The notes below the pieces were generated by a model. The model saw only the letters and a list, made by a program, of their open reading frames with translations, did no database searches and was not told the origin of the DNA. The translations under genes were made by a program, and so were the position numbers. A DNA stretch of 64,000 bases from Escherichia phage SD2: sequence record PQ821640. One strand, written 5' to 3'. Position 1 is the first letter of the stretch. The number at the start of each line of letters is the position of its first letter. Positions 18,500-23,030 of this stretch are shown piece by piece.

Positions 18500-18934
18500 T
18501 TAGTTTAAAATTTCTTTTGCAATGGTAGAAGCAAGTTTTCCATCATATTGATTCGGATACTCTGCTTTAAGGTGTTTCATCATATCTGGCATTTTCTTGC
18601 CTGTCAAGGCAAATTCTTCAGCAATAGCGCGAAGGTCATCTTCAGATAGCATTTCTGGTAAATATTTTTCCAGAGTGGTGATATCACGCATAGCTCGCTC
18701 ACATTTGCTAAGGGAAGCATTAACTTTCTTAAGTGAGTCTAGTTCCTCTTTAGCGTGTGCAATACCAATCTTAACAATGTTAATCATAATATCGTCTTCT
18801 GATTTGTTTAGATTTGCCTTTTGAGTACGAGCAAGGTCAAACTCACCAATAATATTAGTTAACAAAGCAAAAGCACCCTTATCGGTTGTACGTGCTAAGA
18901 TACGATCTGCTTTCATTTGTGTCACAATAGACAT
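18500..18934 (-). CDS. GatB/YqeY-domain protein
   Basis: 144 aa; C-terminal YLPEMLSEDDL...DGKLAS pattern resembles the YqeY family. Confidence 0.5.
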   Translation of the reverse strand: MSIVTQMKADRILARTTDKGAFALLTNIIGEFDLARTQKANLNKSEDDIMINIVKIGIAHAKEELDSLKKVNASLSKCERAMRDITTLEKYLPEMLSEDDLRAIAEEFALTGKKMPDMMKHLKAEYPNQYDGKLASTIAKEILN

Positions 18935-18946
18935 TCTATTCTCCTC

Positions 18947-19519
18947 TTATTTGCTAATGCTTTGAATGTTATTTACAACACGGTTTATTGCCAGTGAAGC
19001 CCTAGGCTCTGCAATACCTGTTGCATAGATATAAGGATGACCTTTTGGAGACTCCCTCATACCGAATGAACCTAATTCTAAACCATATTCATCCTCTACG
19101 TCAACCCCAATATTAGTGGGTACTAAATATGTTTTAACTCCATAATAAGTAGAGAAGAAACAACGCATAGCGTTAGCATACTCTTCAATTGTAGCATCAG
19201 GGTAGAACTCAATCAACTCCAATTTCAAGAAAATATTAAAATGGGTATCATCTAAATTTTCTTCTGTACGGTAACATGGCGTTAGTGCCATATATGGATT
19301 ACCTGCTGCAAATTCAAAACCATCCTTCTCCATTTGCAGGAAAGATTGTTCTGCACTAGCTACATAGTATTTACCGTTAGGATGCCCTAATGGGCGATCC
19401 TCTTTATTTTCTGGTAGTGTGTACGCCAGTATATCAGCATCCACGAGATATGGAACTTCTAACATTTGTGCAAATCGACCATAGTAATCAATAGCTTGAG
19501 CTATTACTGCAACATTCAT
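18947..19519 (-). CDS. hypothetical protein
   Basis: ORF track 190 aa. Confidence 0.5.
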   Translation of the reverse strand: MNVAVIAQAIDYYGRFAQMLEVPYLVDADILAYTLPENKEDRPLGHPNGKYYVASAEQSFLQMEKDGFEFAAGNPYMALTPCYRTEENLDDTHFNIFLKLELIEFYPDATIEEYANAMRCFFSTYYGVKTYLVPTNIGVDVEDEYGLELGSFGMRESPKGHPYIYATGIAEPRASLAINRVVNNIQSISK

Positions 19520-19777: not shown

Positions 19778-22552
19778 TTAGTTTACCAGTTTATTTATGT
19801 CTGGTAAAAGATTTATTTCACCTAAGAAATCACCTTCACCTTCCTCTAGCCAACTTTCATATGCTTGTGCATGATTATAGTTACCATCAAAAGAATCTGC
19901 AACAAATTTTTCTACAGTTTTTCGAGATGTGCCAGCGCCAAATACACCAAGTTTAATACCATTGATCGGTAAAGTGGTGCTTGTGGGTACTTTCTCTGTT
20001 GCAACACGGTTGATATCTATAATCTCCTGTACGGTTGTATTCCATTGTAAGCATTTAACACAACGGGTGTGCGCTACATACAGTAGGTTTCGCTCTGCCT
20101 CTTCTAGTCCTACCCATTCACCAGTCTTTTTATCATAGTTGGAAGGAAAATCATTAGCAACAATAACCTGATCCCACTCCAAACCTTTAGACTTATGTGC
20201 TGTAGTCAGTGTGACTTTTGCTGTAGGAGAATTTCTATGCGTTCTAAGTGTATGTGCTATAGTGTTTGCCTTACCAGAAACTACAATGTTTAACAAGCGT
20301 TTAGCATCTGGATCAGCCTCTGCACACTCAACAAATTCATTCCAGTCTGCGTAAGGTAATACAGTTTCATGTTTTACTTTCTCAATATCTCCTCTTCGAA
20401 GAGCATTAACACTATCTACCATAGAGATAAAATCCCTGGTATCTACGTTAATAATAATTTCTTCCCCATCTGCAATACGATCCATTGCCTCCATAAGCAA
20501 GGTTAAATTCTTGCGAAAGATGATAGTGTAAGGTTTTGTATAGTCTACAACATCTGATTTGTAGCTACCTACTACAGTATCAAAGCCTTTACCAACCAAA
20601 GGATGACGCAAAGGTTCTTTATCACTTAAAATCATATTCGCAATGTTTGCCACTTTGGGGCCAAAACGGAAGCAAGCAGTTAATGGAAGCTCTGCCCCAT
20701 ACTTAGCTGTTTCAATCATCATATTAGAGCTACCTCTAAATTGATAAATGCAGTTATGGCTAAGAATTTCATTGCCAAAGAAGTTAGCAGTATCCTCTAC
20801 TTCAATATCATAATAGATACCATCACTATCTACAATGTCCACAATTTCTTCTGCCGTTACAGTATCACCATCTTTTACCAATACAGACATGCCTTTAAAC
20901 AAACCCGCTGCCGGAATTAAATTATATTTGGCGGTGTTCACAGAGGACATGCATTCTTTTAAAGATGCAAACGGAACTATTTCAAGGATCTTTTGTGCAA
21001 AACTCAATGCTTCACGATAAGAGTTGAAATATTTACGTACACGGTAACGACCTTCCAATTTAGCAACACTCACGCTTACACCTGCTTCAATGAGTGAAGC
21101 ATAGATTGGCATTTCACTTTCTGTCCACTCAAAGCTAACTTGTGTTCCTTTACAACTTTGTGCTCGCAAAGTCACTGTTAACATTTTTCTTTCATCTACT
21201 GCACAATTGATGCTGTGCCAGTGTGGATAAGCAAAATGATAATCTTTATCCTCTAAAAGTTTAAAACCATTTTGTCCGAATTGTTCAAAGATGTTGTTGA
21301 TTCTTTCTTGATTAATACCGCGTGAACTTGCTTCAAATACACAAGTAGGAATGCCATATTGTAAACTGTATGCCATTTCTTTTTCCATAGCAGCTTCACG
21401 GTTTTCAACAATATCCAACACCCATAACTTCTGTGCTTTTTCAGAACGTGTACGTTGCCCCAGTTTAGAAAAACCTTCTTTATCATCGAATTTGTTAGTG
21501 ATCCCTACTCGGAAGCCTAAATCTTTTCTCCACATTAGGTATACCACCATCTGATCATCTTTCAGAACATAAGGTGAAGCCCAAATACGATGGTTATGTG
21601 TCATATCTAAAGTCTTACCTTTAGCAGTAATAACATTCCTACCTTTTGTACGTGTAGATAAAGTCTTATTTGTTACTTTTCTAAATGTAACTTTACCGTT
21701 AGAATAAGACTCTACCTTATCACCTATTTGCAGGTCTTTCATTGTAACCTGACCATTTTCGGTATTAAGTACCGTGTTTTCTGACACACATTGGAATTCA
21801 TCACCAACTACCACAATTTGTTTTGCAGATTTAGCATTTCGCAGAATAGACAAGAATGCAGGGTTAACATCCTGGAATTCATCCCCAAAAATAATGTCAT
21901 AACCAAGATCAGCACCAGACAATTCAAACAATTTTACATAGGTGTCGTGCGTCATCAAAGTATCTGTGTTAGGGTCAATGCGCTCTCGCCACAATTGTTT
22001 TGCATACTTAACTACTTCTGTAATTAGTTTGTGTTCGTTAATACCTTTTCTTTTAATATCTGCAAGATGTACACTAGGAAAATGTTTACGGCTGATAAAA
22101 GGATCATCCGAAAATTCAAACTTACCTACGGTTTGCTTGATCATTAAACCAATCATAGCACGAGTTAAAAGTGTTTTCCCTCGTTTATCAATAAGATTAT
22201 TAATCTTAAATTTCTTTGCTATCTCACTACCTGTACCTGCAACGTTAACATACTGTCCTTCTGGTCGGGACAGTTTTGCACGTAAACGATGATCCAGGAA
22301 TTGATAGCAAATGGAATGCAATGTACGGCATTCTACATTTGGTGGCATCTTACGCCGTGCTTCTTCTGCCATGCTTTTATTGAAAGCTAAGTAAAGAATG
22401 CGATCTTCTGTACTGTTAGCCAGCAAATAAAGTGTTGACGTTTTTCCTGATCCAGATTTAGCTTGGATAGTTAAAAACCGATGATCTGGAAAAGCCTCCT
22501 TAATAGCTGTTTGCTCTTCTGTTGGAGTAAAACTCAACTCTTTCTTAGCCAT
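19778..22552 (-). CDS. UvrD-like SF1 DNA helicase interrupted by an intein
   Basis: Start at MAKKELSF (RBS AAGAGAGG); Walker A AKSGSGKTS, motif II IIFGDEFQDV; motif III GDEFQ / CIYQFRG is split by a 346-aa insertion. Confidence 0.8.
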   Translation of the reverse strand: MAKKELSFTPTEEQTAIKEAFPDHRFLTIQAKSGSGKTSTLYLLANSTEDRILYLAFNKSMAEEARRKMPPNVECRTLHSICYQFLDHRLRAKLSRPEGQYVNVAGTGSEIAKKFKINNLIDKRGKTLLTRAMIGLMIKQTVGKFEFSDDPFISRKHFPSVHLADIKRKGINEHKLITEVVKYAKQLWRERIDPNTDTLMTHDTYVKLFELSGADLGYDIIFGDEFQDVNPAFLSILRNAKSAKQIVVVGDEFQCVSENTVLNTENGQVTMKDLQIGDKVESYSNGKVTFRKVTNKTLSTRTKGRNVITAKGKTLDMTHNHRIWASPYVLKDDQMVVYLMWRKDLGFRVGITNKFDDKEGFSKLGQRTRSEKAQKLWVLDIVENREAAMEKEMAYSLQYGIPTCVFEASSRGINQERINNIFEQFGQNGFKLLEDKDYHFAYPHWHSINCAVDERKMLTVTLRAQSCKGTQVSFEWTESEMPIYASLIEAGVSVSVAKLEGRYRVRKYFNSYREALSFAQKILEIVPFASLKECMSSVNTAKYNLIPAAGLFKGMSVLVKDGDTVTAEEIVDIVDSDGIYYDIEVEDTANFFGNEILSHNCIYQFRGSSNMMIETAKYGAELPLTACFRFGPKVANIANMILSDKEPLRHPLVGKGFDTVVGSYKSDVVDYTKPYTIIFRKNLTLLMEAMDRIADGEEIIINVDTRDFISMVDSVNALRRGDIEKVKHETVLPYADWNEFVECAEADPDAKRLLNIVVSGKANTIAHTLRTHRNSPTAKVTLTTAHKSKGLEWDQVIVANDFPSNYDKKTGEWVGLEEAERNLLYVAHTRCVKCLQWNTTVQEIIDINRVATEKVPTSTTLPINGIKLGVFGAGTSRKTVEKFVADSFDGNYNHAQAYESWLEEGEGDFLGEINLLPDINKLVN
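20753..21790 (-). mobile_element. intein (about 346 aa) inside helicase motif III
   Basis: Insertion begins with Cys (CVSENTVL, Hint block A-like) and ends SHN followed by Cys (+1); flanking exteins reconstitute GDEFQCIYQFRG. Confidence 0.75.
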
Positions 22553-22553
22553 T

Positions 22554-23030
22554 TCAACCTCTCTTAATTTGTTTAACAAGCATAGGAACAAAATCTCGTT
22601 TTAAAATTTGTTCAATAATATGATCAGGTAGCTGTTGGAAATTATAATTAAACGCTACTGTCTCACCTTTAGGTGTTTCTACCCGCACATATAGCATGTT
22701 ACGAAGTTTATCCACTTGTGCTGTATATTCTAAACCATGTAATTGATGCATTGCAAACATCAAATCATCAGTTTCAGTTTGGAATCTATCCCTTGTTTGC
22801 ATCAAGGATAAGGTAAAAGGTAGATTTTCCCTAAGAGCCACCTTCTTAGGAATTAGTGAAGGGAAATACTCCCCAATAACTTCCTGTGTAAGCTGAATAC
22901 ACTCTTTTTCAAGTTGGTTTTGTTCCTTAAGTTCACAAACACTTTTTTGTAAAGTGTTAACCTCTTTTTGCAAAGCTGCTAGTTGAGCACTTAACTTTCT
23001 TTTTTGATTACGACCAAAACGTTTAGACAT
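22554..23030 (-). CDS. hypothetical coiled-coil protein
   Basis: ORF track 158 aa. Confidence 0.5.
   Translation of the reverse strand: MSKRFGRNQKRKLSAQLAALQKEVNTLQKSVCELKEQNQLEKECIQLTQEVIGEYFPSLIPKKVALRENLPFTLSLMQTRDRFQTETDDLMFAMHQLHGLEYTAQVDKLRNMLYVRVETPKGETVAFNYNFQQLPDHIIEQILKRDFVPMLVKQIKRG

Follow-up and report, generated by a model that had tools for sequence, protein, structure and literature searches.

Which element splits motif III of a helicase gene in Escherichia phage SD2, how is it spread among related phages, and what lies within it? The DNA analyzed (sequence record PQ821640) is a stretch of 64,000 nucleotides, termed the window here in its full length. It stems from a phi92-like myovirus of the genus Justusliebigvirus, subfamily Stephanstirmvirinae, and its helicase region is 99.1% identical to that of Escherichia phage vB_EcoM_PHB05 and 97.3% identical to that of phi92. 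The gene in question encodes a superfamily 1 (SF1) helicase of the UvrD/FBH1 type and carries an in-frame insert of 346 codons. We consider it very probable that this insert is a bifunctional class 1 intein, composed of a splicing Hint domain and, most likely, a nested homing endonuclease.

A first-pass annotation, made from the sequence, had pointed to SF1 motifs in the open reading frame (ORF), namely, Walker A (AKSGSGKTS, residues 31 to 39, 22436-22462) and motif II (IIFGDEFQD, residues 220 to 228, 21869-21895), and both were recovered at these positions. The strand had been left unstated; the ORF is on the minus strand, and a plus-strand reading of the same interval was discarded, since all of its frames are full of stops. 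Pfam confirmed the host protein as an SF1 helicase by matches to UvrD-helicase (45.6 bits; cutoff, 23) and UvrD_C (42.3 bits; cutoff, 25.6), AAA_19 likewise scored over its cutoff, and PHROG 1967 ("DNA helicase") matched the precursor with an E value of 7e-163. The characteristics of UvrD/Rep-like SF1 enzymes were found throughout, i.e., Walker A, the DExx of motif II, a motif III of the form GDxxQSIYxFRG, and both UvrD terminal domains. The ATG codon that opens the sequence MAKKEL... was preferred as the start because the upstream gene ends at 22554 and the coding sequences (CDSs) of sister phages start at ATG; an automatic ORF list extends the frame to a TTG at 22591. The gene and its parts are as follows.

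19778..22552, minus strand: precursor gene of a UvrD/FBH1-like SF1 helicase, 924 amino acids plus stop (ORF, Pfam and PHROG matches; CDS limits identical in MZ501084).
21791..22552, minus strand: N-extein, residues 1 to 254, with Walker A (22436-22462), motif II (21869-21895), and the first half of motif III, VVVGDEFQ (21791-21814).
20753..21790, minus strand: predicted class 1 intein of 346 amino acids, from Cys1 to His345-Asn346, the segment exactly missing from empty alleles.
21566..21790, minus strand: Hint N-terminal lobe, intein residues 1 to 75, with Cys1 and block B MT64HNH67RIW (21581-21604).
20753..20920, minus strand: Hint C-terminal lobe, intein residues 291 to 346, with block F YYD328IEVEDTANFF (20777-20815) and block G NEILSH345N346 (20753-20773) (NCBIfam intein_Cterm over cutoff).
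19778..20752, minus strand: C-extein, with Cys+1, the second half of motif III CIYQFRGSS (20726-20752), then helicase motifs IV to VI and the stop codon.

Translation of 20753-21790 on the minus strand gives CVSENTVL...NEILSHN, preceded by VVVGDEFQ and followed by CIYQFRGSS, in agreement with the first-pass annotation. Motif III is split by the insert (GDEFQ/CIYQFRG), and alignment to solved helicases supports the identification of this site as a UvrD-type motif III. The spliced sequence VVGDEFQ-CIYQFRG aligns across the junction with motif III of Deinococcus radiodurans UvrD, VVGDPDQSIYKFRG, and motif III of human FBH1, VGDPHQQIYTFRG, also aligns over the splice junction of the spliced phage helicase (E value, 1e-31). 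Removal of the insert does restore motif III, as GDEFQCIYQFRG; what did not hold is that this form is the canonical one, since natural intein-free alleles carry Ser, not Cys, at position +1. The nearest solved relative of the spliced helicase is human F-box DNA helicase 1 (FBH1; 9xzj; E value, 1e-31), with bacterial UvrD (E value, 5e-6) and Gabija GajB far behind. FBH1 (PDB 9xzj) and bacterial UvrD (4c2u and 2is1) have the SF1A helicase motifs in common with the phage protein but, unlike it, are both intein-free.

The identification of the insert as a class 1 intein is based on its splice residues and profile matches. The hallmarks of this class claimed earlier, Cys1 (codon TGT at 21788-21790), His345-Asn346, and Cys+1, are all present, and the residues of block B, with its Thr-x-x-His (T64-H-N-H67), and of block F can be added to them. 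Among 90 family members, conservation amounts to 100% for C1, H67, and N346, 91% for D328, and 88% for H345, which is replaced by Ser in some relatives. The +1 residue is Ser in 73 of 89 relatives, Cys in 15, and Thr in 1; the window has Cys and the empty alleles have Ser. A search with Hint profiles detected both the N- and the C-terminal splicing regions, and the predicted structure of the intein conforms to the Hint fold. The NCBIfam profile intein_Cterm scored 20 to 23.3 bits (cutoff, 15.6), and Pfam Intein_splicing was matched by all 33 relatives scanned (best E value, 8e-12). The GC content is ~37% in the intein and flanks alike, so that composition gives no hint of a foreign origin.

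We infer from sequence and predicted fold that the precursor splices. Translation would yield a 924-residue precursor in which motif III (GDxxQ/S or C-IYxFRG) is split, and the Hint domain (intein residues 1 to 75 and 291 to 346) would perform standard protein splicing: (i) an N-S acyl shift at Cys1, assisted by T64 and H67 of block B, (ii) trans-thioesterification to Cys+1, (iii) cyclization of Asn346, assisted by His345, and (iv) an S-N shift. The predicted products are a 578-residue helicase in which motif III would again read GDEFQCIYQFRG and a free intein of 346 residues.

The decisive comparison, that with intein-free homologues, revealed a precise empty site, GDEYQ/SIYQFRG. In EmilieFrey and ~20 other records, whose exteins are 97 to 98% identical, exactly 1,038 nucleotides are missing and helicase motif III is uninterrupted; the helicase gene measures 1,737 nucleotides in this state and 2,775 nucleotides in the occupied one. 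At the empty site of EmilieFrey, the DNA reads GTGGGTGACGAATATCAG on one side of the junction and AGCATTTACCAGTTCCGTGGAAGCCAAAAT on the other. Among 55 Justusliebigvirus-like records that are at least 95% identical in the helicase gene, ~35 are occupied and ~20 are empty, and both states were found in records assigned to the species "alia." Given close relatives that lack exactly 1,038 bp, the insertion is far beyond what chance would produce. In Klebsiella phages KP2025 (90% nucleotide identity) and KP13-16 (67%), this position is taken by more diverged copies of the intein. As a separate observation, the records named "Campylobacter phage" A150, A145, C3, A110a, and B15 (MG065639, MG065645, MG065656, MG065689, and MG065650) give Campylobacter jejuni as the host, yet their helicase genes are ~96 to 97% identical to those of phi92-like or phAPEC8-like coliphages, and the host label looks doubtful.

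The differences between occupied and empty alleles are not evenly distributed. The spliced gene of the window and the gene of EmilieFrey differ at 51 nucleotides, and 25 of the 51 fall between positions -27 and +51 of the junction, in two flanks.

21791..21817, minus strand: upstream flank, unlike the empty alleles, with 10 substitutions in 27 nucleotides (junction-centered clustering of differences).
20702..20752, minus strand: downstream flank, unlike both kinds of empty allele, with 15 substitutions in 51 nucleotides (SSNMMIETAK versus SQNMMKETST).

Near the junction the occupied allele is heavily recoded, with, for example, CAATTTAGAGGTAGCTCT in place of CAGTTCCGTGGAAGCCAA. We read the upstream flank as a remnant of the extein of the donor, i.e., as a co-conversion footprint. 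The downstream flank has moved together with the intein into Phapecoctavirus DIJ07P2, whose helicase gene is a mosaic: the intein and the next ~270 bp (the 3' flank) are 96 to 100% identical to the window, whereas the N-extein, up to its last codon, and the distal C-extein match those of the intein-free Phapecoctavirus nieznany at 97 to 100% identity and the window at only ~72%. According to these comparisons, the DIJ07P2 allele crossed between genera and bears a co-conversion tract on one side only. Such a tract is expected from the repair of a double-strand break close to the insertion site, and its one-sidedness predicts a cut on the C-extein side. Judging from the mosaic gene, which points to a recent move, the intein is, or recently was, mobile. 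In a mixed infection, helicase alleles without an intein would be cleaved by the putative nested endonuclease and then repaired on the template of an intein-bearing genome, a repair that would copy the intein along with adjacent extein DNA. The ~215 residues between blocks B and F are most likely a homing endonuclease; what the sequences display is the footprint of homing, namely, a codon-precise polymorphism, co-converted flanks, and an inter-genus mosaic.

What kind of endonuclease, then, could be nested in the intein? From the size of the insert, the first-pass annotation had suggested an embedded homing endonuclease, with LAGLIDADG or HNH domains to be searched for. A domain of ~215 residues is indeed nested between blocks B and F (intein residues ~76 to 290), the usual place of intein endonucleases, but it is of neither type. 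No LAGLIDADG motif and no matching Pfam or NCBIfam profile was detected in the window sequence or in 33 relatives, and LAGLIDADG-containing inteins superpose on the Hint part only (TMq, ~0.3). Likewise, no beta-beta-alpha-metal His-Asn-His arrangement and no HNH profile match were found. An antisense or out-of-frame endonuclease inside the intein was also rejected, as such frames contain only ORFs of 61 to 77 residues without a family match. Searches of the nested domain against Pfam, NCBIfam, PHROGs, and PDB sequences with 5- and 31-sequence profiles gave nothing beyond Hint matches, and Foldseek against the PDB returned Hint-based matches only. The layout of the domain was derived from an AlphaFold2 (AF2) model built on a 33-sequence alignment from an exhaustive search; a model from a 5-sequence alignment (pLDDT, 52) was unusable and was replaced.

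21311..21559, minus strand: lobe A, intein residues 78 to 160, candidate divergent GIY-YIG-like nuclease core, beta-beta-(loop)-alpha-beta-alpha, with VVY84LMW, GFR94VG96IT, R113xxxE117, and E138.
21209..21310, minus strand: helical connector, intein residues 161 to 194 (AF2 secondary structure, helix 161 to 181).
20921..21208, minus strand: lobe B, intein residues 195 to 290, predicted alpha/beta module with the basic motif GRYR250VR252KYF (AF2 model).

This domain belongs to a large family. An exhaustive HMMER search was needed to see it (a word-indexed protein search gave 4 intein relatives and 2 relatives of a GIY-YIG seed), and an exhaustive profile search gave 1,409 representative clusters at an E value of 1e-3 or below and 600 at 1e-10 or below. 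The members inspected are UvrD-like helicases that hold the domain within an intein. In 84 of the 89 full-length inteins extracted, insertion is after the Gln of motif III, at the position GDxxQ/(S or C)IYxFRG; other sites are motif II (VDE/C...HN/CQDLN) and a third one (AHN/C...HN/SKQIP). One relative (P0004) is free-standing, and its gene immediately precedes that of an uninterrupted UvrD-like helicase on a phage-like contig. Among phage alleles, the ratio of nonsynonymous to synonymous substitution rates (dN/dS) is 0.02 to 0.05 in the nested domain versus 0.12 to 0.27 in the Hint lobes, which indicates strong purifying selection on the nested domain. At ~40% overall identity, Y84, M86, G92, R94, G96, R113, E117, W123, and E138 are each kept in at least 96% of sequences, and R250 and R252 of lobe B, which may bind DNA, are 85% conserved. 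An active endonuclease is the best reading of the nested domain because of this selection, the free-standing relatives, and the homing footprints.

As to its type, lobe A is best compared with GIY-YIG nucleases. Using hhalign, we aligned lobe A (89 sequences) with a canonical GIY-YIG alignment of 49 sequences assembled from viral contigs and obtained a probability of 52% (P = 1.5e-4), against at most 1.1% for the controls (lobe B, the Hint N-lobe, reversed alignments, and 40 column shuffles). E138 (97% conserved) falls on the catalytic invariant Glu of GIY-YIG enzymes, in the confident core of this alignment; in its extended, low-confidence part, VVY84 falls on GIY and FRVG96IT on YIGxT. Y84 (98% conserved) is in the predicted strand 81 to 88, and R113 (96%) opens the predicted helix 111 to 116, with E117 (97%) at +4. 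In the AF2 model, the conserved residues follow the order known from GIY-YIG enzymes: the first strand holds the Tyr and the second the x-Gly, the Arg opens helix 1, and the Glu is in helix 2. On the grounds of alignment and model, it is fairly probable that lobe A is a divergent GIY-YIG-type nuclease (Y84, R94-x-G96, R113-x3-E117, and E138) to which lobe B is joined as a DNA-binding module, a two-module design that would resemble that of I-TevI. More tentatively, and with chances somewhat short of even, the nested domain may be the founding member of an undescribed homing endonuclease family (>1,400 clusters, specialized on motifs II and III of SF1 helicases plus one or more other sites) whose catalytic lobe is a divergent GIY-YIG domain, the first inside an intein.

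A comparison with the GIY-YIG homing endonucleases of T-even phages (I-TevI, I-BmoI, and the Seg proteins) illustrates both sides of this proposal. The candidate core beta-beta-alpha-beta-alpha with Tyr, Gly, Arg, and Glu would be common to both, as would the two-module layout, and the T-even enzymes spread between co-infecting phages with co-conversion of the flanks, as the window intein appears to do. However, they are encoded in introns or are free-standing, whereas the window domain is in an intein; the latter has Arg for the YIG Tyr, RxxxE for RxxxH, and a disordered loop insertion and, unlike the I-TevI group, has neither a NUMOD or zinc finger DNA-binding region nor a PF01541 match. A 2006 survey of the GIY-YIG superfamily stated that its members had not been found in inteins (PMC1564403).

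Several observations weigh against our interpretation at its different levels. (i) At the level of splicing, the window intein falls slightly short of two profile thresholds, with 33.3 bits for Pfam Intein_splicing (E value, 5e-8; gathering score, 35.8) and 20 to 21.4 bits for NCBIfam intein_Nterm (cutoff, 24.5). (ii) At the level of homing, the evidence for co-conversion depends mainly on a single mosaic genome. (iii) At the level of the GIY-YIG assignment, an invariant Arg occupies the position of the YIG Tyr (FR94VG96, with the Gly invariant) in all 163 domains inspected, E117 replaces the His/Tyr four residues after the Arg, and hhalign leaves R113 off the GIY-YIG Arg. Moreover, neither PF01541 nor any other Pfam model of the GIY-YIG clan matched any of 33 members at E values up to 10, and with a thin alignment of 3 GIY-YIG sequences the hhalign probability was only 0.9%. 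As regards the Arg, T5orf172 and MUG113, members of the GIY-YIG clan CL0418, have Lys/Arg where the YIG Tyr stands.

The explanation that survives best beside a GIY-YIG nuclease is that the nested domain is a homing endonuclease of a wholly new family, with a fold unrelated to GIY-YIG and a resemblance that is fortuitous. We regard this as unlikely: the hhalign result with the deeper template (52%; P = 1.5e-4) stands against nulls of no more than 1.1%, and the order of Y84, G96, R113, and E138, together with their secondary-structure context, fits the GIY-YIG core.

It is improbable that, in a genuine intein, the nested domain is not a nuclease but has a DNA-binding, structural, or regulatory role, so that the patchy distribution and the mosaics would result from ordinary recombination or from a break made by another nuclease. 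Such a view would be in keeping with the failure of sequence searches to detect a nuclease family, with the weak structural likeness of the nested domain to nucleases, and with the free recombination among phages of this group. It sits poorly with a codon-precise indel in ~20 genomes, with substitutions that crowd sharply around the junction, and with a tract beginning precisely at the intein; the pattern in the flanks is the one that gene conversion leaves behind when a break sets it off. The strong purifying selection and the Tyr, Arg, and Glu residues that are invariant across relatives of ~40% identity also argue for a nuclease, as does the free-standing copy, which adjoins a helicase gene in the manner of free-standing homing endonuclease genes. 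Finally, in the sister phage no homing endonuclease gene is annotated beside the helicase gene.

An intein that is kept mainly as a posttranslational switch, gating the helicase by splicing that is conditional on redox state or DNA damage, with homing secondary or lost, is very improbable. The location in a motif that couples ATPase activity and the possibility that Cys1 and Cys+1 form a redox-sensitive pair would suit this idea, and Novikova et al. (PMC4760082), noting that inteins cluster in ATPase motifs, argued that they have roles of this kind. However, ~20 near-identical phages do without the intein, selection is strongest on the nested domain and not on the Hint lobes, and the footprints of transfer point to recent mobility. 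That the insert is not an intein but a domain retained in the mature helicase is scarcely credible, its sole support being that splicing itself was not observed.

The wider family of a bifunctional intein with a nested endonuclease, as we interpret it, includes several further arrangements. A scan of genome contigs, bounded by its search patterns and not a census, placed the family at 8 loci of metagenome-assembled genomes (Patescibacteria, Nitrospira, Omnitrophota, and others). Giant helicase-like proteins of 1,800 to 2,500 residues (P0005 to P0011, P0013, P0073, and others) contain 2 or 3 inteins of this family each, at motif II, motif III, and AHN/C...HN/SKQIP, which points to repeated site switching within SF1 helicases. 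On a Logan contig (SRR21713527_33579; locus L007, 5001-5798, 5864-7300, and 7306-8112), a free-standing relative of the nested domain, 265 residues long and devoid of the Hint N-lobe and splice residues, is directly followed by an uninterrupted UvrD-like helicase gene (motif III, VGDSYQAIYGFR) and then, directly downstream and on the opposite strand, by a canonical GIY-YIG (PF01541) gene. Stand-alone ORFs of a different kind (P0002, P0003, P0012, P0014, P0024, P0053, P0074, and P0138, with 330 to 366 residues, and L008, 194-1270) have kept both Hint lobes and the nested domain, with Met in place of Cys1 and the terminal His-Asn gone; they look like intein-derived free-standing proteins and recall the yeast HO endonuclease. 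In L008, the sole context of such an ORF that was looked at, no helicase gene is present within 4 kb.

Klebsiella phage KP13-16 (OP617741; L097, 120-3716) encodes an orthologous helicase of 1,198 residues with two inteins that is annotated merely as a "hypothetical protein." Its first intein is in motif III and is of the same family as that of the window (VGDKHQ/CVSGET...SHN/CIYGWRG); the second is in Walker A (GTGK/AQPLTAVV...IVTHN/TSTL), has clear LAGLIDADG motifs (LGVLIGDGYL and LRGLMDTDGS), and apparently begins with Ala instead of Cys. A UvrD-like helicase gene on a high-GC metagenomic contig (ENA ERZ25039553:contig_79597; L005, 4997-8107) carries the same intein at the same site (...SHN/SIYGWRG) and is distributed over four consecutive ORFs, a result of frameshifts, assembly errors, or decay. 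In the genomes of the Prevotella megaphages Lak-A1/A2/C1 (MK250015-19 and MK250029), a stretch of 64 nucleotides matches the block F/G end of the intein at 83% identity, possibly a sign of a related intein. Outside the intein gene, two short ORFs of 145 and 190 residues lie just 3' of the helicase gene (window 18500-19519, minus strand); in the sister phage they are labeled "putative aspartyl/glutamyl-tRNA synthetase" and "putative tRNA synthetase," respectively, and they are much too short for complete synthetases.

How much of this was known? The intein as such is already public knowledge and is ordinary in kind, being annotated in sister phages, with UvrD inteins catalogued. In GenBank, JohannJBalmer (MZ501084) and PaulScherrer (MZ501100), both of the BASEL collection, have an "intein-containing UvrD / Rep family helicase precursor" with an intein mat_peptide, and vB_EcoM_ZYD (PQ110661) has the same element as "intein-containing UvrD"; gene and site are those of the window, and the intein is 96.6 to 98.4% identical at the nucleotide level. 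The mat_peptide of JohannJBalmer takes in the +1 Cys codon (20750-20752, which is 66244-66246 in MZ501084) and amounts to 347 codons (window equivalent, 20750-21790). We place the boundary after Asn346 (346 codons, 20753-21790) because of the empty alleles and the splicing chemistry. Most other records of the gene read "DNA helicase" or "hypothetical protein." The BASEL paper says that inteins were annotated and nothing further (PMC8594841), and a 2024 paper states that no inteins have been reported in coliphages (PMC11162368), which shows that the literature has yet to take up the GenBank annotation. Novikova et al. (2016; PMC4760082) listed 16 bacterial UvrD inteins from five phyla and described inteins in ATPase motifs; host protein family and location in an ATPase motif are as here, and since that paper gives neither insertion site nor endonuclease type, its 16 inteins are candidate members of the family of the window intein. 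In the open-access literature, with subscription journals outside the search, we found no description of the window intein, of its nested domain, or of a GIY-YIG-type domain in any intein.

With respect to known intein endonucleases, those of PI-SceI (yeast VMA1), PI-PfuI, PI-PkoII, and the Tli/Pho VMA inteins have a LAGLIDADG nested domain, and only their Hint part superposes on the window intein (TM, ~0.3). The types listed in a 2025 survey are LAGLIDADG, HNH, Vsr-like, and EndoVII-like (Gosselin 2025; preprint 10.1101/2025.01.02.630785). There is precedent for non-LAGLIDADG endonucleases in inteins, especially those of phages, in the form of in-frame HNH, Vsr-like (in split inteins), and EndoVII-like enzymes (Dalgaard 1997; Dassa 2009, PMC2677866; Gosselin 2025). 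The HNH, Vsr-like, and EndoVII-like folds were undetected in the window domain, which is in frame and belongs to a separate and much larger family.

The intein finding as first stated is a correct rediscovery of little weight by itself, in a protein family known to host inteins. More weight attaches to the nested domain, which is outside the endonuclease types known from inteins and represents a large family without a Pfam or PHROG model. The locus also preserves, with unusual clarity, the traces of natural intein homing across two phage genera, namely, a mosaic allele, a one-sided tract of ~270 bp, and a recoded target site in the occupied alleles. The system is tractable, since these are phages of E. 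coli K-12 in a public collection in which occupied (JohannJBalmer and PaulScherrer) and empty (EmilieFrey) alleles are both present. If the GIY-YIG assignment is true, it would end a long-repeated exception, that GIY-YIG domains occur in introns or as stand-alone proteins and never in inteins, and the family would provide a new compact nuclease scaffold that is specific for helicase genes.

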